Positions 6,718 through 63,815 of a DNA stretch of 64,000 nt are shown here, piece by piece; position 1 is the first letter of the stretch, and each line of letters starts with the position of its first letter. The notes under the pieces are model-generated. The model did no database searches and was not told where the DNA came from. It saw only the letters and a program-made list of their open reading frames with translations. This DNA comes from Candidatus Iainarchaeum sp. (GTDB taxonomy: Archaea; Iainarchaeota; Iainarchaeia; Iainarchaeales; VGJJ01): positions 84,608-148,607 of the forward strand of contig JAUYHT010000008.1 in NCBI GenBank assembly GCA_030688545.1, written 5' to 3'. Both the position numbers and the translations under genes were made by a program.

Positions 6718-7491
6718 TTAATTGGCTTTCCCTGGAAAAATGGGTTTAGCGCCCTGCTGCCAATCCAGGAGGAGCTTGAGGGCCATGGCACGGGTATCAG
6801 GCAACCCCCCCTTCCGGAGACGATTGAGTTTTACCGCTAGATTTTCGAGGCACTCATATCCATCCGCCCCTTCGAGGTCTACACCGTATTGGCGTTGAAT
6901 CCACGTGCCCCAATGGGGATGGGTAGGCAACCATTCGAGCAATTGCTCAGCGGCCGTCTGAGGATTTTTTACCTGGTTGGGGGATTTAGCATTCACTAAT
7001 ACGAGACGGAATTCATCGCGTTCAGCCAGGGGAATAACCCCAGGTGTGTCAAGGAGGTAAGTATCCTCTTTCAGCTTGATCATGCTCCGCCCTCGCGTGA
7101 AACCGGCTTGTTTGGAGGTGGGGGCGGCATGGCGGCCGGCGAGAGCATTGATGACGCAGGACTTCCCGGCATTGGGATAGCCGACAACCGCTATTTTGCC
7201 CCCATGAGGGAGGAGGGAGAATAGGAGGGTGCGGAGGAGACGGATGTTTTTTTTGGGAGTGCAGGAGATAGAGACAATTTTCAGGTCGTCCGAAAAGGTG
7301 CGGGTGACGCGGGGAATATCCTTGGGAAGCAGATCCATCTTGTTGAGGATGAGCACCACTATTTTTCCGCGACGCACCAGCTCCTTCTCGAGCGGGCGGT
7401 TCTGCATGATGTCGGCGAAACGGGCGTCGACTACTTCCAGGACGACATCGGCCTCTTTGATGGCCGCGAAAGCGTGCTTGGCGAGACCCAT
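6718..7491 (-). CDS. circularly permuted GTPase (YlqF/RbgA/Nug1-like ribosome-biogenesis GTPase family)
   Basis: G4 (NKMD) precedes G1 (GYPNAGKS) and G3 (DTPG), the permuted order diagnostic of the YlqF/YawG family. Confidence 0.8.
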   Translation of the reverse strand: MGLAKHAFAAIKEADVVLEVVDARFADIMQNRPLEKELVRRGKIVVLILNKMDLLPKDIPRVTRTFSDDLKIVSISCTPKKNIRLLRTLLFSLLPHGGKIAVVGYPNAGKSCVINALAGRHAAPTSKQAGFTRGRSMIKLKEDTYLLDTPGVIPLAERDEFRLVLVNAKSPNQVKNPQTAAEQLLEWLPTHPHWGTWIQRQYGVDLEGADGYECLENLAVKLNRLRKGGLPDTRAMALKLLLDWQQGAKPIFPGKAN

Positions 7492-7503
7492 TAGGAAAAA
7501 AGG

Positions 7504-7857
7504 TTAAAGCAGCTTTAAATGACCCGTGTATTTGTCCACATCCGACTCCCGGGCGGGACCAATGCCAATACAGGTTTTAGTGCCAGGAGTTACTTGCGTG
7601 TGACCCGCGTCGGCGATAAGGGCGGAAGGGAAATGGTTCTTCACCTGCTCAAACAAATGAAGCAGCTCTTCCTCGGAAGACACTTTAACCACGATCTTCT
7701 GCGCCCCCTCATCCAACCATTCCTGCCAAGCCGAACCATACTTCCTTTCCTGGGACTTGAGAAAGGCCTGGAGGGACGCATGCGCGCACTGGGCGGCGAG
7801 CTTGCCCTTGCCCAATTTTAAGTCGGAACGAATGACGAGGACTTGAGTGTAAGCCAT
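7504..7857 (-). CDS. pth2: peptidyl-tRNA hydrolase, archaeal type (Pth2)
   Basis: KLGKGKLAAQCAHASL motif and about 117-aa length match the Pth2 family. Confidence 0.85.
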   Translation of the reverse strand: MAYTQVLVIRSDLKLGKGKLAAQCAHASLQAFLKSQERKYGSAWQEWLDEGAQKIVVKVSSEEELLHLFEQVKNHFPSALIADAGHTQVTPGTKTCIGIGPARESDVDKYTGHLKLL

Positions 7858-7900
7858 GATATGAGGAAGAAACTATGATTGGGTAAATAAACGAGGGGGG

Positions 7901-8890
7901 TTACTTTAGGCGGAGTTGAAGATAGTATTGGAATTTTTGGATTATTCTTTTCAATTCTTTGGACATGTTTCCTTTCGACATGCCTAATTCTCTCGCCAAA
8001 TCTTTCGCTAACTCCCCATGACCAAAAAGTCGGATCAACAATATGCGTTCCTCCGGAGGTAATCGACTCAGGGCATATCGAATAGGTTCCGCCCACTCCA
8101 TGCGATTGCTTTGAACTACCGCGGATGGGTCCTCAATGAATTGGCGGATGAGTTGTGAGCGTTCACTCCGCCTTTCGACGGGAACATCCATTGATACTAC
8201 CTTCTTTTTGCGTCGAAGTGTCCCTTGTTGCTCATTTAGAAATTTCCAGCTTTCAAATTTGGCAACCTTTTTCAGGTAGGGATCCAACTCCCCTTTCTCT
8301 GGGTCGTAGAGGAACAAGGCTTCGCACAATTCCATTAAAATGGATTGATAAACTTCCTCACGATGGGGTAAGCGCCACAATTCACGCATGATCAATTCTT
8401 TTTTGGACTCCACTATTTTTATCGCTTCTTCCATGGTCGCGACATTCTTTTTTTCACGGAAAGCCAAAGCGGGATTTTGAAGGATTCCCTCCCGCTCGAG
8501 TGTATTGAGGATGCTCCTGGCTAAATTGGAAGGAAGAGTGGTACGGAGTTCTTCCGCAAATGCCTGGTAAGCGTCTCGGTATTTTTTTCGGTTTTGAACA
8601 TCCAATTTGGGGGCATGTTTAAGGAAAATTTTATGGCCCGTTTCGAGCAAAGCCATTCGGTGGCTGACCTCTTTCTTATATTCTCTTAGGAATTCAGGGA
8701 TCTGTTCCTTGGGAAGAGTGGCCATGATTCCCCTTACCTGCGTGTCGTGGAGCTTTTTGACCAAAGGCGGCCGTTTTCTCTCCTCGCCTCTGCTCCAATG
8801 GGGTATTCTTACTCCTGCCGTCGACTCGAAACGCAACCGTGCCAAATTCTGAGCGGCCCTTTTAGCATTAGGAGTGCGCGAGGGAGGCAT
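7901..8890 (-). CDS. HTH protein with sigma-70 region-4-like C-terminal domain (and possible region-2-like segment)
   Basis: C-terminal ERILLIRLFGHGELAKDLARELGMSKGNMSKELKRIIQKF resembles the sigma-70 r4 / LuxR HTH. The mid-region YQSILMELCEALFLYDPEKGELDPYLKKVAKFESWKFL resembles sigma r2. Confidence 0.6.
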   Translation of the reverse strand: MPPSRTPNAKRAAQNLARLRFESTAGVRIPHWSRGEERKRPPLVKKLHDTQVRGIMATLPKEQIPEFLREYKKEVSHRMALLETGHKIFLKHAPKLDVQNRKKYRDAYQAFAEELRTTLPSNLARSILNTLEREGILQNPALAFREKKNVATMEEAIKIVESKKELIMRELWRLPHREEVYQSILMELCEALFLYDPEKGELDPYLKKVAKFESWKFLNEQQGTLRRKKKVVSMDVPVERRSERSQLIRQFIEDPSAVVQSNRMEWAEPIRYALSRLPPEERILLIRLFGHGELAKDLARELGMSKGNMSKELKRIIQKFQYYLQLRLK

Positions 8891-8910: not shown

Positions 8911-8920
8911 CTATAAAAAT
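8911..8920 (-). promoter_or_regulatory. TATA box (TTTTTATAG on minus strand) about 26 nt upstream of the ATG at 8890; leaderless-type archaeal promoter
   Basis: Sequence and spacing seen directly. Confidence 0.45.
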
Positions 8921-9003: not shown

Positions 9004-9516
9004 CTAGCGGGGGCGGTAGATTTCGGTGTCATTGGTGACGGTGGTGGAATACTTGGATTGGGCGATCTCCTCGCGGGCCTGCTGGCGGAGAACTTCAAAC
9101 GAGGGTCGGGGTTCTTCTTCCGCGGGAGGGGAAGCAGGGGTTTCGGGGTTTCCATCTGACGAAGGGGAAGTGGGTTGGGGCGTTTTGATGGTTTCTCCGG
9201 AACGGACTTCACGGAGGGTCACCGTTTTGGTGATGCCATTATCCTCCCATAAGGAAGCGAATGGAGTGGGGGAATGGATGTCGAGCCACACCTTGCGCTC
9301 GGAAGGATGCGCATACCCCTTTAATGTATACAACCGGTTGTAGGCGATCTGGACCTTGCTCTCTTGGATGGCATCCACGGTGAACAAGTAGGACCCATTT
9401 TTCAACACCTCGAACTGGTCCCCTTCCTTCACGGAATGGGAACGAAGTTCTCGCTTCTTGGCGAATGGCGGCTTCCAATCCTGGCGCAACTCTTCCACTT
9501 CGATGACCGCTTGCAT
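9004..9516 (-). CDS. hypothetical protein with Pro-rich C-terminus
   Basis: Coherent 170-aa ORF; no recognisable motif. Confidence 0.45.
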   Translation of the reverse strand: MQAVIEVEELRQDWKPPFAKKRELRSHSVKEGDQFEVLKNGSYLFTVDAIQESKVQIAYNRLYTLKGYAHPSERKVWLDIHSPTPFASLWEDNGITKTVTLREVRSGETIKTPQPTSPSSDGNPETPASPPAEEEPRPSFEVLRQQAREEIAQSKYSTTVTNDTEIYRPR

Positions 9517-12544: not shown

Positions 12545-12566
12545 GCCGCCACCCAGGACCTTGAGA

Positions 12567-13856
12567 ATGACTCCCCCTACGTATAGTCTGGTATCAGTGT
12601 CCACCCGCTCCGAGAAAAAAGGAGTGGAGGTCATCTTCGCTTCCCCCCAGAAGCGCCTATCCAAATTCTATCCTTTCTTCCCCAGCCTCTTCCTCCCGCA
12701 CCACCTTCAAAATACATTCGATGAGCTCCTTCCCCAGCTCGACCTTCCCAAATATCAAACCATTACTCACCCTCATTCCCTCCAGGTGACGGCCACTCAT
12801 TTTGAGGACCTCAAGCGCATCGCGCACGCGGTGTTCCAGCACACCGCCTATTATCCCTCCCTCCTCGAACCCGAGCGCCAATTCCTACTGCTTCAGGGAT
12901 GGCGTTATTTCCAAGGATTCGATGACCACGGCAACCCCCTTCCTCACCTATTTGGGGACACCCGCCTGGACGAGATGACGGACAGCCTGCACCCCACCCT
13001 GAATGCGCTTCGCACGCACAACCCGCATGTGTGGAAAGACATTATGGAACGCCTCGCCCTCTCGCATGAATTGTTCATCCCCTATACGGCCGTGCCCCCC
13101 TCTCCCGAAGAGCGGTTGAACACTCTCCTCGAAAATCATTTCTTCACCCACACGCATGCCCAACCTATCACTCCCGGACAACGACTCACCACTTCCACTT
13201 GGAGCATGGGCGAAAGGGAATTGGCCAAGAGACGCGTATTTCAAACGCCCCTCGAAGGGGAAGGACAATGCGCCTGCTGCCGCCCCCAAATGGCCATCGA
13301 ATCGCACGTGCATCCCGGGACGCTCGTGGAGGCTATCGCCACCCAGGATGGGGTGTACATCCACACCCACCAGGAAGCAATGAGCACTGCCTATGATACT
13401 ACTCATGATCATTCCACTCGACGCATTTCTCATGCCCGGGAATGGGGATTACGCATCCTCCCCATTGGTCCCTTGCACCGGGAGGAAAAAATCCTTATTC
13501 CCCTCACCGATGCTCTCGCGGCCCACCACCAAGGATTAATCACCATTCATTTGCCCGAGAATGCCGCGTGGCATTGCCACCGCACTCCTTTTCTTCTCGC
13601 CCGGTTGAAGAACGCATTGGATGAGCGCCTCAGTTCCCACCAGACGCAGGAAACCATGCTCCTCCAGCCCTACCTCCAACAATACCAATTGGCCTTCACC
13701 CAGTATTCCCAAACCAACCCCACTGTCCAATTCCACCATGCCGCTTCCACTATCATCCAAAATCTTTATGGGGGCCTCGCCTGGCACCTGGTACAAGGAC
13801 CCACCCCCTGGAGGGATGCCACCATGGCTCGCCTCCTCTCCCAATCCCTTCCCTGA
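12567..13856 (+). CDS. His-rich hypothetical protein between herA and rpoK
   Basis: Long ORF; the first ATG at 12567 follows a TTG-initiated track ORF. Multiple His clusters (HTHAQP, HVHPGT, HTHQEAM..THDHS). No calcineurin-like phosphoesterase motifs identified. Confidence 0.5.
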   Translation: MTPPTYSLVSVSTRSEKKGVEVIFASPQKRLSKFYPFFPSLFLPHHLQNTFDELLPQLDLPKYQTITHPHSLQVTATHFEDLKRIAHAVFQHTAYYPSLLEPERQFLLLQGWRYFQGFDDHGNPLPHLFGDTRLDEMTDSLHPTLNALRTHNPHVWKDIMERLALSHELFIPYTAVPPSPEERLNTLLENHFFTHTHAQPITPGQRLTTSTWSMGERELAKRRVFQTPLEGEGQCACCRPQMAIESHVHPGTLVEAIATQDGVYIHTHQEAMSTAYDTTHDHSTRRISHAREWGLRILPIGPLHREEKILIPLTDALAAHHQGLITIHLPENAAWHCHRTPFLLARLKNALDERLSSHQTQETMLLQPYLQQYQLAFTQYSQTNPTVQFHHAASTIIQNLYGGLAWHLVQGPTPWRDATMARLLSQSLP

Positions 13857-18577: not shown

Positions 18578-18652
18578 GGCCCCGTAGCTTAGTCTGGATA
18601 GAGTGTCGGGCTTCGGACCCGAAGGTCGGGGGTTCAAATCCCTCCGGGGTCG
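18578..18652 (+). tRNA. tRNA-Arg (anticodon TCG)
   Basis: Folded by hand: acceptor GGCCCCG/CGGGGTC, D-arm GCTT..GAGT, anticodon stem TCGGG/CCCGA with loop CTTCGGA, 5-nt variable loop, T-arm GGGGG-TTCAAAT-CCCTC, discriminator G; no encoded CCA. Confidence 0.85.
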
Positions 18653-18717
18653 CTAAATCGTAAAGTCAACGTGCGCTAAAAGTCTTTTTAGGGAGCAACC
18701 GCACGCAGATGATATGA

Positions 18718-20097
18718 ATGCCCCCAAAACCAACCGACAATAGCATACACGGATACCACGAAAAATATCACAGAGTCCTCTATCAACTCTTTCCCGACAA
18801 ATTCCCAAGACCTATTCCAAAGAGAGAAGGCGTATCCAAACAGATAGAACCCTTTCAGATCAATTTGATCAACAAGAAAGTTCTATATGATCTATACTTG
18901 TTTCAAGAAGCATCCGACCAAACAGGGGTTGCTCGACGATGGACACTCTTACGGCTCCTATCCAAAATCAGTCTCCTGCTAGAAGAGACTGACGGGTTTT
19001 CAGGGGACTTACCTGAAAGGACATTCCAAAACATGCTCTCGCATGAAAAAGGAAAAGAAATTGTCCTGCAACTCGCCAACAAAGTACGAAGACAAACACA
19101 ATGGAACCGAACAACCGAAAACTTTCATCTTCGTGCACTCAAACAGCTCCTTCGACACATGAATGGAGGCGATTCCACTCCACACTGCATCTCATGGCTT
19201 AAGTTCAAACGAAAAAAGAATGATTCGGGAGAAGATCCAAGCAAGGCACCCAAATTGATTAAACGAGAAGACATTATCACCGAACCAGAAATGGCAAAAC
19301 TCTATGAGAATGCTTCGCACACCATGATTAAATGTGCACTCGCCTGCTTATGGGAAGGATTACGTGCCTCCGAATTATTGAATTTGAGAAAAAAGAGCGT
19401 TACCTTCGAAGAAAATACGGTCAACCTTTCAGTCCAAGGAAAGACGGGCTCTCGAATCGTAAAATCAGCGACAGGTGCACGATACATTCGTGATTGGTTA
19501 AGCCAACATCCAGATCCTTCCCCCGATTCGTGGCTCTTTGTGATCGTTTCAAACAAAAATAAGGGTCAACGTTACGGATATTTTCCATTGGGAAAAGAAA
19601 TTCACAACACGCTTCGTCGAGCTGGCATCATCAAGCGCGGAAATTTGCACGTGTTCAGGCATTCACGTGTCGTTGACATGCTTCTCAAAGGATATTCCCC
19701 CGCTATTATCCAAAAAGTGATGGGATGGTCAAGCTTAGATATGCTCCAAACCTATGGCCATCTTGTCGATGTGGACGCTCACAATGAAGTTTTACGAATT
19801 GAATTAGGAGGAAAACCAAGAGAAGCAAAGCCTTCCATTTTATCCGCCAGAGTTTGCCTCATTTGCTCAAAAGAAAACGATTTGAGTGCAGATAGCTGCG
19901 TGAGATGTTCCAATGCTCTAACCGACAAGGGCCTTGTCGAAAAGAACCGAGAATACCACGAGCTAAAAGACAAAGTTCAGGAACTCCAAGAAAGCATGAG
20001 TCTTCTAACTGCTTGGATGAAACGATTTGGCAAAAGTGAGCCATCTCCAAGAGAAGCCAAGGAATTTCACGACGAATGGATAAAAACTATTGAATAA
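18718..20097 (+). CDS. int: tyrosine recombinase / integrase (intact, tRNA-adjacent) with C-terminal CxxC...CxxC zinc ribbon
   Basis: Catalytic-domain motifs FRHSRV (HxxR) and LQTYGHL (Tyr); located 65 nt downstream of the tRNA-Arg 3' end. Confidence 0.85.
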   Translation: MPPKPTDNSIHGYHEKYHRVLYQLFPDKFPRPIPKREGVSKQIEPFQINLINKKVLYDLYLFQEASDQTGVARRWTLLRLLSKISLLLEETDGFSGDLPERTFQNMLSHEKGKEIVLQLANKVRRQTQWNRTTENFHLRALKQLLRHMNGGDSTPHCISWLKFKRKKNDSGEDPSKAPKLIKREDIITEPEMAKLYENASHTMIKCALACLWEGLRASELLNLRKKSVTFEENTVNLSVQGKTGSRIVKSATGARYIRDWLSQHPDPSPDSWLFVIVSNKNKGQRYGYFPLGKEIHNTLRRAGIIKRGNLHVFRHSRVVDMLLKGYSPAIIQKVMGWSSLDMLQTYGHLVDVDAHNEVLRIELGGKPREAKPSILSARVCLICSKENDLSADSCVRCSNALTDKGLVEKNREYHELKDKVQELQESMSLLTAWMKRFGKSEPSPREAKEFHDEWIKTIE

Positions 20098-24941: not shown

Positions 24942-25532
24942 ATGAAACAAGCTGAAACGATTTATAAAACCAAAAAAAGATACCTTGCACTAATGATTCT
25001 CTGTTTCTTCTACGGAGGATTCACCCTTATTATGGCGCTGATTGTGGGATATTCTACTTTCTGGAGAAGCCAAATCGCCGATCCGAGTCTATTCCAGCGT
25101 AGTATCTTTGATCGTGGACCTGCTGATGCCAATCGCTTTTTACCCCCGGATTTTAATCGCGCATTTGTCGAGCGCCTTCCCCTCGATCCTTTTTCAATTC
25201 TCACATCGCCCCCTATTTTGCTTTTCATATTAGGTGGGGTTCTCTCTATTCTTGCAGGGCTAGCTATTTGGAATTTGATGAGAGAAAAGGAAATTAAGAA
25301 AATCAGAGAGGAAACGGCAAATCACTTGTTGCTTCCAGAAGAACTCCAAGTGTTGGAAGCCTTGAAGAAATCCAACATGGAATCCACACAATCTCGAATA
25401 ACAGCAGAAACAGGATTGAGCCGTGTCCAGGTGCATCGCGTGATCAACCGATTGGAGGCCAAGGGAATCCTCGAAAAGCACAAGTATGGACTGACAAACA
25501 AAATTATTTTGAAAAAAGAAATATTCGAATAA
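24942..25532 (+). CDS. membrane-anchored winged-helix (MarR/ArsR-like) transcriptional regulator
   Basis: Two N-terminal TM helices plus C-terminal LQVLEALKKSNMESTQSRITAETGLSRVQVHRVINRLEAKGIL wHTH. Confidence 0.55.
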   Translation: MKQAETIYKTKKRYLALMILCFFYGGFTLIMALIVGYSTFWRSQIADPSLFQRSIFDRGPADANRFLPPDFNRAFVERLPLDPFSILTSPPILLFILGGVLSILAGLAIWNLMREKEIKKIREETANHLLLPEELQVLEALKKSNMESTQSRITAETGLSRVQVHRVINRLEAKGILEKHKYGLTNKIILKKEIFE

Positions 25533-25679: not shown

Positions 25680-26627
25680 CTAATTATTCCCAAAGTCTGA
25701 ATTCTCCAAGAGGTCTTTGGATTCTTTTATTTTGATTTCCTGATCAAAGTGGTTCAATCTGTGGAGAACTCTTTCGAGCATTATTTGGTCTCTTTTCTCA
25801 CTGTATATTACGTGGAGTATGTTATTGATTGTTTGGATGGTTTTTTCGTCGAAGTTGGCTTCTCTTCTATTTTGGATGTCGGAATATGCAGACAGGAGGG
25901 TGTTGAGCAGTATGTTTTGTAATTCGGTTGAGATGTAGTTTACATAATTGAAGTCGTAGTCTCTTCGTCTCAGTCTTTCCATTTCTGTTTTTTGCATTCT
26001 TTCCTTAGCTTTTATTTCCATTTGTTTCAGTTGGTTAATTCCTTCGACTTGCTCTTGAAAATAGGCGGCCTCTTCGTGGTTGTTCTTTTTCTTCATTTTC
26101 TTAGCAAGAATGCGCATTCCTTTGGCGGCGTGTCGTTCTTGCCGCTTGAGGTGCGTAATAAAATATTTTCTACTGAATTCGACTTGTCTTAATCGGTTGT
26201 TCCACGTTTCCATCATTAACTGTTTTATTTTTTCAATCTCAATCTCTTGTAAAGGGCCAAGAGTAATGAGAATGTTGTTGAAGAACGTTTCAATAGGGCT
26301 TTCTGTGATGAAATATTTTTTTCTTTTTGCGTCCGAACCAATTCTAATTCCCTGAAATCCTTTTCCATCTACATTAACGTGAATATTTTTCCCAATTCTT
26401 ATCTCATTTTGAATAAGGTTTGTTCCTTCCAACTCTTTAAGCGCCAGTTGTATACCAGTGTCTTTTTTGGCGTCTAACAACTCGAATATATCTCGTTGGA
26501 AAAGTCCGTCTGGGAACAGTTCGAGCAGGTATAGCACGCGACTGATTCGCGGAGTTTTCAGGCAGGTAACCCACTTGGTAGTAGGTTTGGATTTTTCCCC
26601 TACTTTATTTCCGTCTTTGGACATCAT
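25680..26627 (-). CDS. hypothetical protein (N-terminal wH-like segment, coiled-coil rest); AT-rich
   Basis: Coherent 315-aa ORF in low-GC island. Confidence 0.45.
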   Translation of the reverse strand: MMSKDGNKVGEKSKPTTKWVTCLKTPRISRVLYLLELFPDGLFQRDIFELLDAKKDTGIQLALKELEGTNLIQNEIRIGKNIHVNVDGKGFQGIRIGSDAKRKKYFITESPIETFFNNILITLGPLQEIEIEKIKQLMMETWNNRLRQVEFSRKYFITHLKRQERHAAKGMRILAKKMKKKNNHEEAAYFQEQVEGINQLKQMEIKAKERMQKTEMERLRRRDYDFNYVNYISTELQNILLNTLLSAYSDIQNRREANFDEKTIQTINNILHVIYSEKRDQIMLERVLHRLNHFDQEIKIKESKDLLENSDFGNN

Positions 26628-26702
26628 CTATGTTCATTAGTGGCTTAACCCCTATAAATCTCCGTAGAAAATCAACAGTTTTTCTACGTGGAGGTGAGAA
26701 CG

Positions 26703-26831
26703 GTGAAGACCTTTCAAATAACGGTTCCTGAAGCCTTAGATTCACGGCTCCAGGAACAAAAGAAGAGCTTTACCACCCGAAACGCCCTGATTCTCCACTT
26801 GTTGAATCGGGGATTGGAGGCCCAAAAATGA
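26703..26831 (+). CDS. ribbon-helix-helix (CopG/Arc-like) small DNA-binding protein, about 42 aa
   Basis: Below ORF-track size cutoff; translation VKTFQITVPEALDSRLQEQKKSFTTRNALILHLLNRGLEAQK has the RHH beta-strand plus helix pattern. GTG start at 26703 (or 26694). Confidence 0.45.
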   Translation: MKTFQITVPEALDSRLQEQKKSFTTRNALILHLLNRGLEAQK

Positions 26832-26963
26832 GTCAAAATCAGACGATTTTGAGGATCGTCAGGTTGGCCAAGGAAGGAGGGGCTGAAAAGTTCCGTTCGT
26901 GGGAGCTCAAACTCATCGAAAAATGAAAAATCCACTCCGACTAGGGAATGGAAAAATTAGGTT

Positions 26964-27179
26964 TTGGATATGGATAAGCAGCAAAAGCTCACTTTAATCT
27001 TTTCGGAAACGACTTTCCCAATTCGCGCGCGCTATTGTACGCAACGCACGGCTAAGTTGTATGGCGCGAAGAAGCTTTTCCAGCTTCTTTATTCTCAAAA
27101 TCGACTTTTTCATGGAAGCATCGCAGTTTCAGAAGATGGCAAGCGCTACTTTATTTTTGAAACAGGGGTACTTGAATGA
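26964..27179 (+). CDS. small hypothetical protein (71 aa)
   Basis: Its stop overlaps the next ATG (ATGA). Confidence 0.3.
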   Translation: MDMDKQQKLTLIFSETTFPIRARYCTQRTAKLYGAKKLFQLLYSQNRLFHGSIAVSEDGKRYFIFETGVLE

Positions 27180-27316
27180 ATCCACATCCTGTTTGTACGT
27201 TTTGTAATCAAGAAAAACCTCCATTCATCGGACTCGGATTCGAAATTTTCTGCCCGAAACATGCTGAAGATGTTGGAAAAGCACTTTTAGAATTCTCTAA
27301 GAAGGCGAATCCATGA
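27176..27316 (+). CDS. small zinc-ribbon-like protein (46 aa; C..C...C..H)
   Basis: Manually translated MNPHPVCTFCNQEKPPFIGLGFEIFCPKHAEDVGKALLEFSKKANP; overlaps the flanking genes by ATGA at both ends. Confidence 0.4.
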   Translation: MNPHPVCTFCNQEKPPFIGLGFEIFCPKHAEDVGKALLEFSKKANP

Positions 27317-28929
27317 ATAGAAAAGAAAAGTCTTTGCGCATTCGCGGAGAATGGACTTGCAAACAATGCAATGAAAAGTTTTATGAAACGACCCAACCAA
27401 CAGTTTGTAAATGTAGACGCGGAGATTTTTATTTTTCAGGATCGCGCGAAGAAGAAGTCGTCAAAATAACGGTGGAAGGAGTTCACTACGAGACTATTTG
27501 CGACGAAAACAATAATGTCTCCTTTGCATTTCTAACAGAGAGTGGATCGCCCAACATTACTGCATTTGTTGATGATGAGGACAAAAATATACGATTTGTT
27601 CCAATTTTTAAGAAAAAAATAATGAAAAAAGATGCAACAGTAGTGATTTTCCCTGAAATACCAGTCGAATATGGAAGCGACTCCGAACTAGTCCATGAAA
27701 TCAAGAGCTTTATCCACCGATATTTGGATATTTCATCTGAACATGAGATGTTCGCGACGCAATATATTTTGCTTTCGTGGGTATACGAAGCGCTAACCAC
27801 TATCCCTTATTTATCGGCCCGAGGAGACTTTTCGACAGGGAAAAGTCGATATCTAGATACCATTGGAGATCTATGTTACTTACCTATTCATGCGAATGGA
27901 GCAACAACCGATAGTCCAATCTTTCGTTTGATAGGAACTTTTGGAGGAACTTTGGTCGCAGAAGAAATTGACAAAGAAAAAAGCGACACAACCCAAATGC
28001 TAACAAAAATAATCAATCTCGGCTACGAAAAGAAAAATTCCATCCTCCGCTCAGACAAAGAAGATCCAAATGAAATTGAGTCATTTAATGTTTTTGGACC
28101 AAAAGTTTTCTCAAGGCGATTTGAATTTCAAGACAAAGCGACTGAGAGTCGATGCATTACAGAATTAATGTGCGACACAACAAGAGAGGATATTCCAATC
28201 CAACTCCCACAAAAGTTCTTTGAAGAACAAAAAGTTCTACGAAATAAATTATTGATGTTTCGATTACGAAATTTACAAAAAGTTGACCCAAATGCGATTG
28301 AAAAAATTCGCTTACCCAAACAACTAGACTCTCGAATAAGACAAGGGCTCGCAAGCTTTGCCATCTTGTTTCATAATAATGAAGAAATCTTCACACAATT
28401 TTTAGACTTCGCCAAAAAACACCAACTAAAAATTAAAGAAGAGTTATCCACGAGCATCGAAGGACAAATAGCCCAATTTCTTTTCGACTACAAAGAAGCA
28501 CCAAAAGAACAGCAGGAAAAAATTCAACCCCAACTAATCGCTAAATGCTTAAGTGAAAAATCAAACAAACCATTAACCCCTAATTTTATCGGTGTTCGAC
28601 TAAAGAGTTTGGGAGTAAAGACGGTTCAAGGACATGAAGAAGAAGGCGGAAAACGTAAAACCATTCGCCACATCGTTTGGGATGAACCACTTTTTGAACG
28701 AATATTTCTGAAATACTTGCCGGAATATTGGATTGAAAAGAATAAGGATTATTTTGATACTGAGGCCCAGAGTCTCGTGCCTGCTGTGCCAAACGTGCCA
28801 GTCGTGCCAAGCTCTATCCACCTGGCACAAGCGGCACAAGTGGCGCAACCAGCACAACGTTCACCCATTACCCATGAAACAGACCCTGAACCCAATTCAG
28901 AGGAGATTGTTCCTCGGGAGCTGATTTGA
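27313..28929 (+). CDS. zinc-ribbon plus P-loop NTPase protein; putative replication-associated (SF3-helicase-like) protein of the element
   Basis: N-terminal CKQC...CKC; Walker A GDFSTGKS; Walker-B-like TLVAEEID; C-terminal low-complexity VPAVPNVPVVP. Family assignment is inference. Confidence 0.45.
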   Translation: MNRKEKSLRIRGEWTCKQCNEKFYETTQPTVCKCRRGDFYFSGSREEEVVKITVEGVHYETICDENNNVSFAFLTESGSPNITAFVDDEDKNIRFVPIFKKKIMKKDATVVIFPEIPVEYGSDSELVHEIKSFIHRYLDISSEHEMFATQYILLSWVYEALTTIPYLSARGDFSTGKSRYLDTIGDLCYLPIHANGATTDSPIFRLIGTFGGTLVAEEIDKEKSDTTQMLTKIINLGYEKKNSILRSDKEDPNEIESFNVFGPKVFSRRFEFQDKATESRCITELMCDTTREDIPIQLPQKFFEEQKVLRNKLLMFRLRNLQKVDPNAIEKIRLPKQLDSRIRQGLASFAILFHNNEEIFTQFLDFAKKHQLKIKEELSTSIEGQIAQFLFDYKEAPKEQQEKIQPQLIAKCLSEKSNKPLTPNFIGVRLKSLGVKTVQGHEEEGGKRKTIRHIVWDEPLFERIFLKYLPEYWIEKNKDYFDTEAQSLVPAVPNVPVVPSSIHLAQAAQVAQPAQRSPITHETDPEPNSEEIVPRELI

Positions 28930-29211
28930 TTGAAAAAACCTATTCGAGTTCACCGCGCTTGGCGGATATCTCCCGAAACCGATCAAGCCATCAAGAAATG
29001 GTCAAAGATCTTAGGAGTCTCCGAGACCCAATTTGTCGAATCCACTATACTAACTGTATCTGAGGGCTTAGCGGAGAGTGCGACACGCGTGAAATCGCGT
29101 GTATCTGCCTCAATAGCTTCAAAATCCACTCAAAAAGAAGAGAAAAATACGCCCACCCCATCATCAAAGATAATAGAAAAGACTATACAAAAAGACACGG
29201 AGGAACCGTGA
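28930..29211 (+). CDS. small hypothetical protein
   Basis: Start 1 nt after the previous stop. Confidence 0.4.
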   Translation: MKKPIRVHRAWRISPETDQAIKKWSKILGVSETQFVESTILTVSEGLAESATRVKSRVSASIASKSTQKEEKNTPTPSSKIIEKTIQKDTEEP

Positions 29212-29212
29212 C

Positions 29213-29770
29213 ATGGAAACGAAAGCCGTTTTTAAAACACATGGAGAACCCGATCAGGTGCTATATCAGCTTATTCAACGAAATCACTTCCTCCCCTGGT
29301 ATCGATTCTCGCCTGAGCATTGGGTAGCGATCCAATTAGGCAGACATCGAATTGCGGAGTATAATGAAGGAAAAATAGTGTCGCGATGTTACACCACGAT
29401 GAAAGAATTTCAAGATAGTGTTTCCCTCCAAATATTATTCCTTGGAACCCCCTTAGTTGGAGTTAACCCCGAACTGTATGAACGATTCCGAAACGATGAC
29501 GTTTTACAAACTAAAGCTATCGAAGCCGTTAGTTCTTGGCATCGTGACGGAACTCCCAATGCCAAAAGACGATTAGCACAAATCAGAATGTTTTGTCTAT
29601 TACTCGCGATTGCAAAAGAAGAAGGGCGTTCAATCGAAGAAATTTCCATGGAAGGACATGAGGCAGACAAAAATCTTTCCCAAGAAACAAAAGCAGAAAT
29701 CAAAGCAAAAGGCTCGTGCTTGGCCACTCCAATACTTATTGAAGAAATGATTAAAACCACTCAACAATAA
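29213..29770 (+). CDS. hypothetical protein
   Basis: Start 2 nt after the previous stop; last gene of the co-directional module. Confidence 0.45.
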   Translation: METKAVFKTHGEPDQVLYQLIQRNHFLPWYRFSPEHWVAIQLGRHRIAEYNEGKIVSRCYTTMKEFQDSVSLQILFLGTPLVGVNPELYERFRNDDVLQTKAIEAVSSWHRDGTPNAKRRLAQIRMFCLLLAIAKEEGRSIEEISMEGHEADKNLSQETKAEIKAKGSCLATPILIEEMIKTTQQ

Positions 29771-29782
29771 CACATAATTTAG

Positions 29783-29819
29783 CCAGAAAAAATAAAGTTG
29801 TGTGTTTTTTATTTTCTGG
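29783..29819 (+). terminator. hairpin (CCAGAAAAAATAAA-N8-TTTTTTATTTTCTGG) with T-runs after the module
   Basis: Seen directly. Confidence 0.4.
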
Positions 29820-29961
29820 AACATTCATGCAGGCAAAAATATCTCTTGTTTTCCCGCAAAAACAGCTCTTTTTTCACAATTCAAATCAAAAGACAATGAT
29901 TTCTGCATTGCCTGAAAAACATTTTTTCCAAAAATTTCAAAATTATGAAGACAACATGGAC

Positions 29962-30222
29962 CTAAAGCGCTTCAATTTCATGAAGCAGTTTTCCCAAACT
30001 CTGACCCTTAGAAGTCAGACTATAGGCGAAGAACTTTCTTCTTTTTTCACGAATCACGGTCGACTCAATCAAATTCAGTTCTTCGAGCTCCTTGATACGA
30101 CTCGACAATGTGGCTTCCCGGTCTACCGTCTTTTTGAGGTCCTTGAACCGCAAGCCCTTGCTCTTATAGAGCGATAAAAGCACTTTTACGATATATTTCC
30201 TTTCGAGAATCGTTGTATCCAT
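29962..30222 (-). CDS. small winged-helix transcriptional regulator
   Basis: 86 aa; KVLLSLYKSKGLRFKDLKKTVDREATLSSRIKELEELNLIES wHTH pattern. Confidence 0.55.
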   Translation of the reverse strand: MDTTILERKYIVKVLLSLYKSKGLRFKDLKKTVDREATLSSRIKELEELNLIESTVIREKRRKFFAYSLTSKGQSLGKLLHEIEAL

Positions 30223-30301
30223 ACCTACCGAAATCGTAGGTATTTTACCTCAAATAGCTTTTACGCACATTAAATAGTGTTACTTACGCTGGCAGTAAGT
30301 A
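30221..30301. promoter_or_regulatory. two related hairpins, ATACCTAC-N7-GTAGGTAT (30221-30243) and TACTTAC-N7-GTAAGTA (30281-30301), each followed by TATTTTA, in a divergent promoter region
   Basis: Seen directly; the first overlaps the regulator start codon. Confidence 0.4.
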
Positions 30302-30338
30302 TTTTAATGGGGGTTTTGTTCCTACTTTATGGTAAAGT

Positions 30339-31421
30339 ATGCCCCGAATCGCCCTTTTTGGAACCTTTTGGCTTTTGGCTATTATCGGGCTGAGCGCGTG
30401 CATAAGTGCCCCTGAAAATCAACAGCAGGAGATTAACCCTATTGACATCCCCGAAGTTACTCCGAATCTAAAAATTGCTGGGATAGTTGAGACTGATGTT
30501 TTCCGACTCTTTCCAGCAATTCGACAAGTGAATTCCAACACTATATCCTATGAGGTAAGACGTTGTGCATTTGGCGAAGAAGCAGTTCCAGGTGCCAATT
30601 TTGGACGACCCGTAGTGAGTATTCATTCATTAGATGAAACAACATCTAAGCGCAATGACATTATCATGTCAGTGGTTGAAGATTCACGCGACTATGTGCA
30701 AACGCTCTCCGCACCGCTCCTTACATTTCTCATTTCAAATGAAAGTGACGTGAATTCAGGCGAAATAATTCTTTCCTATGATGAATCGGATAATGGTGAC
30801 CAATATTGGGTTCCGCGACCATTCAGTTTTTCTCCTTCATTTTCAAAATTTACTGAATTAACCTTGGTCGGAGCTTCCGAAAATAGCGATTATGCGTATT
30901 TTTTCAATCCCGCATTGACTTCAAGGACCTATTTCTACGATCAAAATGAAAACTTGATTTTCACAGACGCGGGAAAACTGGGAGATAAGAATGCAACCTA
31001 CGAATTCAATGAAATCCCTCCCGAAAAAATTTTGGATGCAAATATCTTGGGCTTGTGCGACAGCGAATTTGACTATGTCGAAATTGAACAGAATACTTTC
31101 CCTGTTTCAACTAGGAAAATTCCATGCAAACAAAATTTCGACCAGATCAGAATTGATAACCTCCAACCGAACGAATCAGCACTTGTTTCCCTTCACTATT
31201 ATCCTATGCGACGAATAAATTTGAACATGGAGCATACACCCGATCCTCCATTTCAATGGCCTGTAAAGGAACAAAAAGAAGCCGCGATCAACATTCAAAT
31301 AAACGCACAGTATTCTGCCAAGAAAGAGAAGTTATTCCAGATTGAATTAAAGTTTACCAATCGGGAATATGAGTATGATATCTATGATAATGTGTGCAAA
31401 CCAATTAGTGAGAGTTCTTGA
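30339..31421 (+). CDS. secreted/lipoprotein-like hypothetical protein
   Basis: N-terminal signal peptide ending LSAC (lipobox-like). Confidence 0.5.
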   Translation: MPRIALFGTFWLLAIIGLSACISAPENQQQEINPIDIPEVTPNLKIAGIVETDVFRLFPAIRQVNSNTISYEVRRCAFGEEAVPGANFGRPVVSIHSLDETTSKRNDIIMSVVEDSRDYVQTLSAPLLTFLISNESDVNSGEIILSYDESDNGDQYWVPRPFSFSPSFSKFTELTLVGASENSDYAYFFNPALTSRTYFYDQNENLIFTDAGKLGDKNATYEFNEIPPEKILDANILGLCDSEFDYVEIEQNTFPVSTRKIPCKQNFDQIRIDNLQPNESALVSLHYYPMRRINLNMEHTPDPPFQWPVKEQKEAAINIQINAQYSAKKEKLFQIELKFTNREYEYDIYDNVCKPISESS

Positions 31422-31647
31422 AATTGTTAATCATTGATTTCTCAGCTCTGTTCCTCATAAGAAAAGCTGTGAGGAACATGCATACTCTCTCTTCGCCAAA
31501 GAACCCTATTTTTTCGGAAATGTGAACAAAAACATAAAAAATACGGAAAAGAAGAATCCTTTTCCGAAACGGAACATCAAAAATCATGACCTTGGTGATT
31601 TGCTCGTTCTTTTTAAGAAAAAACAAAATGGAAAATTTCTATTTGTC

Positions 31648-32376
31648 TTACTCCTTTGATACCCCGTCTTCACAAACCATTGTAAAATCTTCTGTGACAC
31701 TGAGTTCCATTTTTCTAACGTTTTTCCTCAATCGATTGATAACTGCAGGTTCTCCCTTTTCTTTAATATTTTCTTTCAATTGCCAATGTGTGAAGTTGGC
31801 AACAATATCCGCTATTCGAATAAGCGGATAATCCCAATCACCATCTTGCAAATCGCAAGACCCTAACCAATTTTCTGCATGCTCTCGTACTTTTTGCTTT
31901 GATGTTTCCCAACCATATCCTTTCAAGTCTTTGTCCCATCGCATGACGGTTTCACCTTTGAATCCCTGGATTTTTAGAACCTCAACCACTAACCATTCAT
32001 GTTTAGCATAGATATCATTCATTGTGGTATATGCTGATGTTCCATCGTCTTTGAAAGTGATTCGCCAAAAGGGAATCCTGTCATAGTTTTTCTTATCAAT
32101 TTTTCCACGAAAAATTTCTTTGTCAACATACAGAATAAAGAATTGAAAATCAGTCTTGGCAAGCCGATCCACAATTTCTTCCCATGAGCTATGTAAATTT
32201 ACTCCTTTTTTTCCTGGCCAGCTTGTTTCAAGCCAATCACAAATTTTTTCAGCGGCTTTGAAATCCCGGGTTGTGATCGTGACAAGAGCGAGATATCGAT
32301 TAGAGTAATTATCATATTCGATCTCACGATTTCCCGAGGCATCAAAACCAGCATAAATTTCCTTCAAAGAGTCCAT
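31648..32376 (-). CDS. DUF3800-like protein
   Basis: N-terminal GFDASGN and C-terminal LIRIADIVANF resemble the DUF3800 terminal motifs (D.SG ... LQ.AD..A). Confidence 0.45.
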   Translation of the reverse strand: MDSLKEIYAGFDASGNREIEYDNYSNRYLALVTITTRDFKAAEKICDWLETSWPGKKGVNLHSSWEEIVDRLAKTDFQFFILYVDKEIFRGKIDKKNYDRIPFWRITFKDDGTSAYTTMNDIYAKHEWLVVEVLKIQGFKGETVMRWDKDLKGYGWETSKQKVREHAENWLGSCDLQDGDWDYPLIRIADIVANFTHWQLKENIKEKGEPAVINRLRKNVRKMELSVTEDFTMVCEDGVSKE

Positions 32377-32445
32377 AATTAGGTCTTTTCCAAATTAAGG
32401 TTAAAAAATGAATCAAACCACCCGTGCTAATCATGCTAATGAGAT

Positions 32446-32952
32446 GTGAATACCATGATTGATCCAGCCGTCCCCAATGAGACACGCGAGCAAAACCGAA
32501 TTGCAATTGTGATTGGTGTTTTTGCCATCTTGTTTGTTTTGTATCCTCACGTTAACCAATCTACTGATGAAATCAAACTTCTTTTTTACCTCACGGCCTT
32601 AGTAGCTATGTTTTACGGTTTGTATCTCTTTTTCATTGCCCTTGCGTATACCCCTGAAAGCGTTGGTCGAATGCATTCAAAATATTTTAACAAATTCAAA
32701 GAACTGGCATATTTCAATTATTTCATCGGCTCGTATGCAGCGTTTCTATTTATGGCCGTAATTGTTGTTTCGCTTATTTTTGGCGGAGTCGCAAAGGCAA
32801 TTTTGGGTTTTGAAATCCCTCTAATAATTCAACAAATTCTTCTTATACTTTTGATTGCTGTTGAAGCGATTAAAATTTTTGGAGTGAATACAGAGGAAAA
32901 AACTGAAGAGCCGATTTGGTCTAGAAGAAGGCGGTACCATGAGCAAAAATAG
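32446..32952 (+). CDS. 4-TM membrane protein
   Basis: Hydrophobic helices; overlaps the next gene by 14 nt (operon). Confidence 0.5.
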   Translation: MNTMIDPAVPNETREQNRIAIVIGVFAILFVLYPHVNQSTDEIKLLFYLTALVAMFYGLYLFFIALAYTPESVGRMHSKYFNKFKELAYFNYFIGSYAAFLFMAVIVVSLIFGGVAKAILGFEIPLIIQQILLILLIAVEAIKIFGVNTEEKTEEPIWSRRRRYHEQK

Positions 32953-59496: not shown

Positions 59497-59623
59497 GAAC
59501 CTCGACGCGCCATCTGAAAATGGCCAAAGATCGACCGGTCGCGCGAAAACACCAACCGAATCACCTATAAAGAAACAAAAAACCGTGCATTTGGACAAGA
59601 TTTAAATTAAGCCAAACAATGCC

Positions 59624-60931
59624 ATGTTCATGCCCCAAAAAAACCGATTGGCGTCGAGACAAGAAAGGGTATTGCGGAAAATAGGATTGATGCCATTAAC
59701 CTCTACTAAAGAAATTTCCACGCGTTTTGGAATATCAATTAATAACCTCAAAATTATTGAGAGATTACATGCGGGAAGGTTAGAAACCAAAAGAGGATTA
59801 ATCGAAAAGTTTTCAAGGGACCCCAACAAAAATCGTCTTTTAACGCACCCAAAATTATGGGCATTGCATCGAACCATGGAACTGGCACCCCTTTTAACCG
59901 CTAGGGAAATACATGAACAACTGGAAAGAGAAAAAAAACACCACCCTCACCTTTCCTCGCTAAAAATTCCGTCCGAAAATATGATAAATTTGACAATTAA
60001 AAATTTAAAACTCCGCACCGAAGAACAGGAAAAGATATTGCTTCGAAAAAGATATGATAAAAGAAGAAGGCCCATCAACGAATTGACTCCGGAGCAACGA
60101 CAGATGCTAGCCGATGCCGCAAAACCCCTTATTGAAAGATATTGGAGTAAGATACGAAGAAATTATGGAGACGAATTGGCTGACATCATCCGTGACCATA
60201 TTCAGGACGAAACCAAGTATGTTCGAATTCCCGCCCATTTATCAAAAGAAGAGATGGAACACGCATGGTTGGCCTACCTGAAAAAAGGACAACGCTACTT
60301 TTTTCTGCGAGGGGTAGCCATTCTCCGATCGCGCACAAAAGGAAAGCGCCGCATTCAGTTTCCCGAAGGAGAAATTCCTAATATTGAAATCGAAGCACTC
60401 CAACCGATAGAAAGAGAAATGGAATTCCCTCCCGACATAACGTTTCCTACCCGCTTAAGTCGACGAGAAGGGCAAGTATTGCAGTTATTGAAAGAAGGAA
60501 AAACGCGAAAGCAGATTGCTGTAATACAAGGGGTAGGAACCGCTGCTATCGGTGCTACTGTAAGTAGGATTCGAAAAAAAATAAAAATAGGAGGTGGCGA
60601 AGAAACACCCCGCCCATCAGAAAAAACCTCACTCCCAATAAAAAAAGCTATTCGCAGACCACTTGATCCTCCAAAACAACAAAAATATCCAGAAACACAT
60701 ATTGGTGACCCTATTCGACGAGCCATCATTACCTACCTTTCAAAGAGAGCAGGAACCTATTATTCACGAGGGAGATTAAAGCAAAGAATACGTGAGGAGT
60801 TTCCAAGTCCACATCCATCTACATTTTGGAAAAAACGTGTCATGCCCCAAATCCAATACTTATTAGAAAATGGCTGGATTGAGGAAGAAATCATCCAAGG
60901 GAAAGTACCTTGGTACCGGTTGAAAACCTAA
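59624..60931 (+). CDS. multi-HTH protein (N-terminal sigma-r4-like HTH, central LuxR/GerE-type HTH, C-terminal winged helix)
   Basis: LSRREGQVLQLLKEGKTRKQIAVIQGVGTAAIGATVSRIRKKI (LuxR-type); N-terminal RLASRQERVLRKIGLMPLTSTKEISTRFGISINNLKIIERL. Confidence 0.55.
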   Translation: MFMPQKNRLASRQERVLRKIGLMPLTSTKEISTRFGISINNLKIIERLHAGRLETKRGLIEKFSRDPNKNRLLTHPKLWALHRTMELAPLLTAREIHEQLEREKKHHPHLSSLKIPSENMINLTIKNLKLRTEEQEKILLRKRYDKRRRPINELTPEQRQMLADAAKPLIERYWSKIRRNYGDELADIIRDHIQDETKYVRIPAHLSKEEMEHAWLAYLKKGQRYFFLRGVAILRSRTKGKRRIQFPEGEIPNIEIEALQPIEREMEFPPDITFPTRLSRREGQVLQLLKEGKTRKQIAVIQGVGTAAIGATVSRIRKKIKIGGGEETPRPSEKTSLPIKKAIRRPLDPPKQQKYPETHIGDPIRRAIITYLSKRAGTYYSRGRLKQRIREEFPSPHPSTFWKKRVMPQIQYLLENGWIEEEIIQGKVPWYRLKT

Positions 60932-61009
60932 AAAACCAAATCCGCTGCTGAATGTTGGCACAATTCAACCGTTTTGAAACCTACGGCGGTTTGGTCCCGA
61001 TAAAATTAA

Positions 61010-61327: not shown

Positions 61328-61419
61328 CATTACCCGCATTCGTGTTCCGATTGACCGTCTCGATTTACTCCGAGTTCCTTTTCCAAAAGAAATACTCGTG
61401 GATGCTAAAAAGGAAATGG

Positions 61420-62697: not shown

Positions 62698-62731
62698 GGT
62701 TTGGACGGTCTATCGCCGAGGAAAACGTTAA

Positions 62732-63790
62732 ATGGGTGGATTGGGTCAATCCCCCATGACCCGATCCTCCCGGTTGCCCAGCGAGCGATTCCATCGCCGG
62801 CCATCAACGCGAGAAAGGACACGTGCCGCTCTACTAGCACGAACGAAAAAGGGATGGCTGGAACGCCTTCACGAACCGCCCCCCTGGTGGGAGAAAGGAA
62901 AACTGTTGGATTATAGAACTAAAAGATGGAATGAGGTGGAAGAAGGCATTCGTTCTACCAGTCCCGAAAAATACGCAGAAGCCGAGCGTCAGTTAAAAAA
63001 CCATTTTGATTATCAAGCTGAATACGCGATTAGAAAATATTTTGAATTGAGACCAAACACCCCCTATTCATTTGAAGAAATATATACGCGCATGCTCGAA
63101 AGACATTATTTCAACTTTTTGACAGCAGCCAAAGAAAATTTATCTGGTTCCTCTTATATTCTTGCAAGAATGAGCCTTGCCATCGGGCCGGAAAAAAGGG
63201 TTCTTGAAAGTTTTGAACAACAAAATCTACCAAAAGCAAGTCGCTTTACGAGCCACCCACGTTTTGGCAAAGCGAGTTCCAGAAAAATATCTTTACTTGG
63301 AATACTTCCCCCCCACATCCCGACAACGCCTAGCCGACCGGACATCGTGCATTACCTATCTGGGATACCTGAACCCAACCGGACCATTGTGATGCGCTAT
63401 TTCGGAGTAGGGACAGCACCCGAAACACTAGCTTCCATTGCAAAAGATTATGGCGTAACTGGGGTAAGAATTCGCCAACGGATTCGACGCTCGCTCGAAA
63501 TCATCCGCACCAGAACGCGGCCACCAAAATCAAAAAAAAAGATTATCCGACGGAGGCGGAATGAACTCATTCGGGAAACCCTTGAAATATTCATGAAAAA
63601 GGGGGAAGGTTCTATAAAAATGATCAAATCCAGAGACCTATTTTCCCTATTGCGATTAACATATCCGGCAATTAACTATTCCACTTTTATTCGGCTGCTA
63701 ACTCAACTGGAAAGAGAGGATCGAATCGACCATATCGCTTATGGGGTATACACCCTCCGCCCGAAAGGGCGGCCGAGGAAAGACCATTAA
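62732..63790 (+). CDS. HTH protein with sigma-70 region-4-like domain plus C-terminal winged helix
   Basis: NRTIVMRYFGVGTAPETLASIAKDYGVTGVRIRQRIRRSLEIIR closely follows the sigma70_r4 consensus. Confidence 0.55.
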   Translation: MGGLGQSPMTRSSRLPSERFHRRPSTRERTRAALLARTKKGWLERLHEPPPWWEKGKLLDYRTKRWNEVEEGIRSTSPEKYAEAERQLKNHFDYQAEYAIRKYFELRPNTPYSFEEIYTRMLERHYFNFLTAAKENLSGSSYILARMSLAIGPEKRVLESFEQQNLPKASRFTSHPRFGKASSRKISLLGILPPHIPTTPSRPDIVHYLSGIPEPNRTIVMRYFGVGTAPETLASIAKDYGVTGVRIRQRIRRSLEIIRTRTRPPKSKKKIIRRRRNELIRETLEIFMKKGEGSIKMIKSRDLFSLLRLTYPAINYSTFIRLLTQLEREDRIDHIAYGVYTLRPKGRPRKDH

Positions 63791-63815
63791 AACCCATCCT
63801 CCCGGAAGATAGGCT

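Follow-up and report, generated by a model that had tools for sequence, protein, structure and literature searches.

Archaeal transcription initiation is held to rely on TBP, TFB and TFE and to operate without sigma factors. The stretch of archaeal DNA analysed here (the window; 64,000 nucleotides of Candidatus Iainarchaeum sp., contig JAUYHT010000008.1) encodes three proteins, P1, P2 and P3, which an initial annotation had described as carrying helix-turn-helix (HTH) motifs of the bacterial sigma-70 region 4 (r4) or LuxR type. The three open reading frames (ORFs) were found where that annotation had placed them, their HTHs have statistical support from Pfam and NCBIfam and, as it had also noted, they lie among archaeal core genes: P1 adjoins PTH2, P2 is located 3' of RFC, and P3 sits between Nre and a TGS-domain gene. 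The gene content of the window is archaeal (PTH2, NurA, HerA, Rad50, aRF1, ABCE1/RLI, Nre, Elp3, the CCA-adding enzyme and an intein-containing RFC small subunit), no bacterial RNA polymerase (RNAP) genes occur in its 64 kb, and when every ORF of the window was searched with local profiles, none besides the flagged ones proved sigma-like. NCBI assigns the proteins identical to P1, P2 and P3 to Candidatus Diapherotrites (DPANN). Among the three, P1 is the sole genuine sigma-70-family homolog. It is organized as follows:

7901..8890, reverse strand: P1 (MDP2667015.1), 329 amino acids (aa), composed of an N-terminal domain, sigma2, a disordered linker and sigma4
8486..8890, reverse strand: N-terminal domain of P1 (aa 1-135), five helices, basic (28 K+R vs 15 D+E), lineage-specific
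8225..8443, reverse strand: sigma2-like domain of P1 (aa ~150-222), with the motif YQS..L..ALFLYDPEKGELDPYL
8099..8224, reverse strand: disordered linker of P1 (aa 223-264) replacing sigma3; predicted local distance difference test (pLDDT) <50, no Sigma70_r3 match
7916..8098, reverse strand: sigma4 domain of P1 (aa 265-325), with the r4.2 HTH

P1 matches the NCBIfam model TIGR02937 for sigma-70 factors of the extracytoplasmic function (ECF) type with 50.7 bits (cut-off 42.9), its residues 166-323 corresponding to profile positions 13-164 of 165. The region 2 (r2)-like segment that the initial annotation had pointed out falls inside this match. The Pfam scores are lower, slightly short of the gathering score for Sigma70_r4_2 (24.7 bits against 25.7) and under it for Sigma70_r2 (18 bits against 24). 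A HMMER search of 1.84 billion representative proteins retrieved six full-length relatives (321-352 aa, 26-35% identity, E-values of 1e-17 to 1e-26), followed, below a gap in the list, by ECF-sized proteins (170-230 aa) whose alignment is confined to P1 residues ~165-320. All seven members of the resulting P1 family match TIGR02937 (best E-value 1.4e-19) and Pfam Sigma70_r4 (best E-value 8e-12), and six of the seven also match the FliA/WhiG (TIGR02479) and SigB/F/G models. Compared with solved sigma factors, the family profile gives matches down to E=1.5e-16 with r2 and r4 both aligned, those of the WhiG/FliA types coming first, followed by SigF, RpoS, SigA and the ECFs; the r2 aligned by the profile includes that of FliA, RpoS and SigA. 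A search of indexed proteins returned only P1 itself when P1 was used alone and, when the family alignment was used, two members of the family plus bacterial sigmas and nothing else. Scans found a single locus in genome contigs (with the four closest family sequences) and no match in metagenome contigs (with the P1 family), and single-sequence PDB searches with P1 were uninformative. P1 also reached 121 bits against a local ECF profile, a value to which we give no independent weight since that profile was built from P1-matching proteins.

The AlphaFold2 model of P1 built from the family alignment (mean pLDDT 77; residues 223-264 disordered) contains sigma2 and sigma4 domains that each superpose on their solved counterparts at about 2 Å. 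For sigma2 the value is 2.1-2.2 Å, which, together with the TIGR02937 coverage, bears out the r2-like segment. In Foldseek comparisons of the model with the PDB, the first seven matches are ECF sigmas (Mycobacterium tuberculosis SigE, SigL and SigH), with AlgU, Escherichia coli sigmaE, SigK and SigW lower in the list, over ~180 columns that represent their full length. The NCBIfam match above cut-off, the family profile match at 1e-16 and the domain superpositions therefore identify P1 as a true sigma-70-family homolog, which NCBI names 'sigma-70 family RNA polymerase sigma factor'. The similarity is sigma-specific rather than that of a generic winged helix-turn-helix (wHTH): P1 has only faint MarR, IclR and HTH_10 matches, far under its sigma matches, and neither TrmB nor Lrp/AsnC is matched by P1, P2 or P3 at E-values up to 10.

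P1 retains the sigma2 core pattern (..YQS..L..ALFLYDPEKGELDPYL..) plus a group-3-like r4.2 helix, and the r2.2 motif D-x-x-Q-E is degenerate across the P1 family. Sigma3 is absent, as shown by the lack of any match to hidden Markov models (HMMs) of region 3 and by the disorder of the linker in the model. Bacterial ECF (group 4) sigmas such as E. coli sigmaE, M. tuberculosis SigE/SigL/SigH and Bacillus subtilis SigW consist of just sigma2 and sigma4 connected through a short linker, with neither sigma3 nor sigma1.1, and usually have a co-transcribed anti-sigma factor. P1 differs from them by a conserved 135-aa N-terminal domain that ECF sigmas do not have, by a degenerate r2.2 core-binding motif, and by being encoded in an archaeon, amid core genes and without a recognizable anti-sigma gene, by a hypervariable gene with a predicted TATA-type promoter. 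With the group 3 sigmas FliA/WhiG (sigma28) the P1 family shares its best profile matches for sigma4 and partly for sigma2 (E-values of 1e-16 to 1e-14), as well as an r4.2 recognition helix, (L/V)SES.V.K, close to their VSESRVSQ. Unlike them, P1 has a 42-residue disordered linker in the place of sigma3 and is found in an archaeon, outside any flagellar regulon context.

The N-terminal domain of P1 (135 residues, helical) is archaeal-specific, conserved and without known relative. Across the P1 family it shows the highest mean identity (41%), followed by sigma4 (31%) and sigma2 (23%). Its last helices (aa 116-138; 8486-8540, reverse strand; TTLPSNLARSILNTLEREGIL) are weakly similar to the recognition helix of IclR/MarR-type winged-helix proteins (Pfam HTH_IclR E=0.021; BLASTP E=0.09 to a MarR-like protein of the window at 24942-25532). 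From these similarities, the domain may contain a degenerate wHTH.

The P1 gene has a fixed genomic address, which we compared among six loci from independent assemblies: the window, L001 (a 63-kb contig of an uncultured archaeon), L002/L003, L006, L007 and L008. In the window, P1 is accompanied by:

8911..8918, reverse strand: TATA-like box (TTTTTATA; also given as TTTTTATAG), 21-28 nucleotides (nt) 5' of the P1 ATG
9004..9516, reverse strand: small ORF of 170 aa, directly upstream of the sigma-like gene in 6/6 loci
7504..7857, reverse strand: PTH2 (archaeal peptidyl-tRNA hydrolase; Pfam PTH2 E=3.6e-41), the conserved downstream flank

The gene order small ORF, sigma-like gene, PTH2 is found in all six loci, with NurA or NurA-HerA upstream wherever the contig extends far enough (window, L001, L006 and L008) and a GTPase downstream, either directly or past one inserted gene, in all loci but the short L002/L003. 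The same order among archaeal core genes in six independent assemblies excludes mis-binning. An A/T-rich TATA-like box is likewise present 20-30 nt upstream of the ATG in every locus, a layout that suggests an archaeal promoter with a leaderless transcript. None of the P1 neighbours contains a known anti-sigma domain. The small ORF consists of a conserved domain of ~105 aa, a variable low-complexity Pro/Ser/Glu-rich linker and a near-invariant C-terminal EIYRP tail with the consensus (D/S)(T/S)EIYRP(N)Q. Its identity across loci is 53-99% (relatives at 7540-7950 in L001, 5461-5967 in L006 and 1537-1962 in L008), and it has no match in Pfam, PDB, PADLOC or PHROG. It may be a partner of P1, or else an unrelated core gene. 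Several loci contain additional genes. An uncharacterized 312-aa ORF (7219-8157, with a G+C content at third codon positions, GC3, of 0.29) lies between the sigma-like gene and PTH2 in L006, and the interval between PTH2 and the GTPase contains an EamA transporter gene in L007 (1778-2650) and a methyltransferase gene in L008 (3394-4056). The region beside the sigma-like gene seems to be an insertion hotspot.

Within this frame, the sigma-like gene is hypervariable. When the window is compared with L001, the sigma-like protein shows only 31% identity, whereas its neighbours show 52-76%. The difference is largest between L002 and L007, for which the nonsynonymous (dN) and synonymous (dS) divergences, calculated by NG86 and unreliable near saturation, are:

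Small ORF, L002 vs L007: protein identity 99%, dN 0.02, dS 0.60
Sigma-like gene, L002 vs L007: protein identity 28%, dN 0.89, dS saturated
PTH2, L002 vs L007: protein identity 95%, dN 0.06, dS 1.09

At the nucleotide level, the identity between these two loci is 0.82-0.97 in the small ORF, 0.37-0.53 in the sigma-like ORF (0.18 in one gap-rich alignment segment) and 0.75-0.93 in PTH2. Both sequences are identical up to and including the TATA-like box, and the divergence, which starts right behind it, touches all domains of the sigma-like protein, with sigma2 identity as low as 14%. The dN of 0.89 exceeds the values obtained for this gene when L002 is compared with L001 and L008 (0.66-0.67), which are more distant from it, with a flank dS of 1.3 to >2. 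In 1000 of 1000 bootstraps of the flanks, L002 and L007 are each other's nearest neighbour. For the sigma-like protein, L007 is the nearest to L002 in none of the 1000 and L002 the nearest to L007 in 30. The gene tree is therefore incongruent with the frame in which the gene resides. Either alleles have been exchanged, with the recombination taking place in the conserved flanks, or a single lineage has evolved at or above the neutral rate with the fold kept.

Sigma-70 family genes (fam00359) have been reported in DPANN archaea, mainly in Woesearchaeota (Castelle et al. 2021; PMC8204110). According to the passages of that article devoted to sigma, these homologs coexist with TBP, TFB and TFE, anti-sigma factors were not found, mis-binning was excluded and the mechanism was left open (PMC8204110). 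P1 is similar to them in being encoded on an archaeal contig without a recognizable anti-sigma gene. The initial annotation had called the sigma-like proteins of the window unexpected and uncharacterised. The first word is too strong after the 2021 report, and because NCBI already annotates P1 to P3, whereas the second holds for their function, as our literature search retrieved no paper characterizing DPANN sigma-70 proteins. The N-terminal domain, the small ORF/PTH2 locus and the hypervariability are not mentioned in the main-text passages on sigma of PMC8204110. New here are the domain architecture of P1, the fixed frame of small ORF, sigma-like gene and PTH2, and the hypervariable P1 gene incongruent with its flanks. 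As for the suggestion that such regulators were borrowed from bacteria, it is plausible as a remote origin of P1. Today P1 is a resident of an archaeal clade, given its fixed syntenic locus, its archaeal-type (predicted) promoter and its archaeal-specific N-terminal domain.

The two other proteins flagged in the window are orphans:

59624..60931, forward strand: P2 (MDP2667073.1), 435 aa, with a LuxR/GerE-type HTH at aa 278-322 (nt 60455-60589)
62732..63790, forward strand: P3, 352 aa (344 aa from the NCBI start), with a sigma-70 r4 HTH at aa 209-259 (nt 63356-63508)

P2, named 'LuxR C-terminal-related transcriptional regulator' by NCBI, matches Pfam GerE (PF00196) with 32.2 bits (gathering score 23.5) and, weakly, TIGR02937. 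The best PDB sequence matches of its HTH are those of RhlR/LasR, also weak (E-values of 0.05-1.6), and no autoinducer-binding, receiver or ligand-binding domain was detected in P2 with Pfam and NCBIfam at E-values up to 10. P3, the 'sigma factor-like helix-turn-helix DNA-binding protein' of NCBI, matches Pfam Sigma70_r4 with 28.8 bits (gathering score 24.1) and its r4 is canonical, like those of RpoS, SigA and RpoD. Its r4 (aa ~202-262) is the sole part matched by Pfam, NCBIfam, hhalign and the local ECF profile, and no sigma2 is detectable. A single-sequence AlphaFold2 model of P3 has a pLDDT of 42, too low to be used. Among 5.8 billion proteins P3 matches only itself, a scan of metagenome contigs with P3 gave no match, and scans of the IMG/VR viral contigs yielded no relatives of the P1 family or P2. 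One viral match of P3, limited to 37 residues in a giant-virus metagenome-assembled genome, was treated as spurious. Single-sequence PDB searches with P2, P3 and the small ORF were uninformative. The extra C-terminal winged helix attributed to two of the three proteins could not be confirmed. The C-terminal matches are weak (AbiEi wHTH with E=0.002 in P3, HTH_20 with E=0.13 in P2), and such winged helices remain plausible in P2 and P3 as sequence-based predictions. Nor do the three proteins form the lineage-specific set of sigma r2/r4-like proteins that had been proposed. Sigma2 occurs in P1 only, and paralogy was rejected, also for the accessory N- and C-terminal regions, as the all-against-all comparison by BLASTP, hhalign and hmmsearch found no similarity beyond r4. 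The sole common part is the r4 HTH of P1 and P3 (hhalign E=0.0015 over 53 columns). P2 and P3 are unrelated putative regulators that share just an r4/LuxR-type HTH and an atypical base composition. Because HTHs of this type have already been documented in about 110 archaeal proteins (PMC5413776), P2 and P3 are unremarkable by themselves, apart from their orphan status and composition. As in archaeal LuxR solos, Tfx and Bat HTH_10 proteins (PMC5413776), the HTH is here a single module in otherwise unrelated proteins. Unlike the archaeal LuxR/r4 regulators, P2 and P3 possess no recognizable sensor or receiver domain and are atypical in composition.

The GC3 of the window core genes is 0.60-0.69, compared with 0.50 for P1, 0.42 for P3 and 0.36 for P2, and values similar to these three are found in a probable integrated element at a tRNA-Arg gene (0.33-0.42; see below) and in the intein-bearing RFC. 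In each of the six genomes the GC3 of the sigma-like gene is below that of the small ORF upstream, and in five it is also below that of PTH2. This low GC3 fits horizontal exchange and also fits weak selection or low expression. Around P2 (with the small ORFs behind it, e.g. 61010-61327) and P3, the segments 59500-61400 and 62730-63800 form low-GC islets (0.38-0.45) among core genes with a GC content of 0.50-0.56; the P1 locus has the same signature.

We favour, with about even confidence, the interpretation that P1 is an exapted sigma-derived DNA-binding regulator equipped with an archaeal N-terminal adaptor and an archaeal promoter and subject to diversifying selection or allele exchange. Its ancestor would have been a sigma factor of the bacterial type with two domains, sigma2 and sigma4, and without sigma3. 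This gene would have settled as a resident in one DPANN (Diapherotrites-related) clade and gained the basic all-helical N-terminal domain of ~135 residues, and at its fixed locus it would now have an archaeal promoter of its own, of the TATA type. In the present protein, the sigma4 HTH would read duplex DNA, sigma2 would provide a second contact with DNA or protein, and the N-terminal domain would connect P1 to archaeal partners, while the gene would be swapped between lineages inside its conserved frame. P1 is most likely not a canonical sigma subunit because of the archaeal transcription machinery and because its sigma2 and sigma4 surfaces change at a near-neutral rate. The pattern of variability suggests selection for diversity, the cause of which might be conflict with viruses or mobile elements or a diversified specificity. 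Several observations weigh against this interpretation. No DNA target motif of P1 was identified, and the retained sigma2 motifs (e.g. YDPEKG..YL) would also fit an RNAP-binding role. Low GC3 and fast evolution may stem from weak constraint and low expression. The synteny is drawn from rather closely related genomes and, therefore, does not prove functional coupling of P1 to the small ORF or PTH2. In addition, the dN and dS values are rough since the alignments have <30% identity and the dS of the sigma-like gene is saturated, and only seven members of the P1 family are known, all of them derived from metagenomes.

P1 might instead confer promoter specificity on the archaeal RNAP as a genuine sigma-like factor. 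In this case sigma2 would sit on the clamp coiled-coil of RpoA', contacts with the polymerase or TFB and with promoter DNA would be made by sigma4 together with the N-terminal domain, a subset of promoters would be redirected or blocked, and alleles would differ in specificity. We consider this improbable. A contact of P1 with the archaeal RNAP is conceivable, since sigma70, TFB/TFE and Spt4/5-NusG all bind to the clamp coiled-coil, a site conserved in the different domains of life (PMC3223566), and since homology between sigma and TFB has been proposed (PMC4581349). Moreover, the sigma2 and sigma4 folds are kept in all members of the P1 family, the window protein keeps the sigma2 core motif, and the conserved N-terminal domain could adapt P1 to the archaeal enzyme. 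However, sigma2 is the least conserved structured part of the protein (23% mean identity, 14% between L002 and L007), which is hard to reconcile with binding to a highly conserved polymerase surface, and the family has a degenerate r2.2 motif (D-x-x-Q-E). Sigma activity in archaea is unreported in the literature, and DPANN archaea retain TBP, TFB and TFE, as stated in the sigma passages of PMC8204110. In a related scenario, to which we give only a slim chance, P1 would dock on the clamp coiled-coil of the archaeal RNAP, with the N-terminal domain serving as archaeal adaptor, and act on top of TBP/TFB as an exchangeable factor that confers promoter specificity or blocks initiation. Its alleles, of ancient divergence and swapped at the locus between small ORF and PTH2, would differ in specificity.

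The sharp boundaries of divergence and the incongruence of the gene tree with the flanks are also what would be observed if P1, and perhaps P2 and P3, were parts or leftovers of conflict systems, namely regulators derived from mobile elements or viruses or components of defence and counter-defence exchanged as cassettes. This possibility, which overlaps partly with that of an exapted regulator, we regard as rather unlikely. It agrees with the orphan status of P2 and P3 and with the low GC3 of all three genes, similar to that of the element at tRNA-Arg. Sigma-like proteins are known in phages and defence systems, with matches to PHROG sigma families at an E-value of 4e-11 and weak NCBIfam matches to MzaA and the type III-E CRISPR sigma. 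Nevertheless, no integrase, transposase, repeat or defence partner lies beside P1, P2 or P3, the PADLOC matches (CARF3, CasR and AbiEi) are weak, at the HTH level and non-specific, IMG/VR yielded no relatives, and viral structural matches are no better than bacterial ones. The constant locus is atypical of a mobile element, and the family-specific N-terminal domain is conserved. Finally, P1 could be a functionless drifting remnant of an old bacterial transfer, with P2 and P3 being fast-drifting or spurious ORFs. The similarity of the sigma-like dN to the dS of the flanks, a low GC3 consistent with weak selection and the tiny size of the P1 family among 1.8 billion representative proteins point in this direction. 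We find it very unlikely, given that intact ORFs of 321-352 aa occur in seven lineages, some of them with flanks saturated at synonymous sites, that all seven members keep the sigma2 and sigma4 folds and match the r4 HMM, that conservation extends to the N-terminal domain and to the promoter-like box, and that the gene tree is not clock-like.

DPANN sigma homologs had been noted earlier yet never explained, and the P1 family provides a concrete and tractable case: it is small, it has a fixed genomic address and a predicted archaeal-type promoter, and it carries an added conserved domain. Near-identical flanks around a 28%-identical gene with a discordant tree form a pattern typical of diversifying selection. 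Should P1 touch the archaeal polymerase, it would bear on the interchangeability of initiation factors across domains and on the proposed relationship between sigma and TFB. Should it be a conflict-driven regulator, it would mark an unrecognized variable locus in symbiotic archaea. P2 and P3, in turn, call for caution, as an r4/LuxR-type HTH by itself is insufficient to call a protein a sigma factor.

The window also has the following features. A 431-aa ORF without Pfam match at E<0.001 (12561-13856, forward strand) is located between HerA and Rad50, at the position expected for Mre11. In the segment 18578-36000, a tRNA-Arg(TCG) gene (18578-18653) is directly followed by a tyrosine recombinase gene (18718-20097). 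Further on, many consecutive ORFs without Pfam match (25680-34129) are low in GC (GC3 0.33-0.42), and HEPN-like and DUF5677-like genes are also present. The segment probably represents a mobile element or provirus that has integrated there. The RFC small subunit gene (56620-59496, forward strand; 958 aa) contains an intein with a homing-endonuclease-like insert, which pulls the GC content of the gene down to 0.38-0.42 at ~57100-58800.

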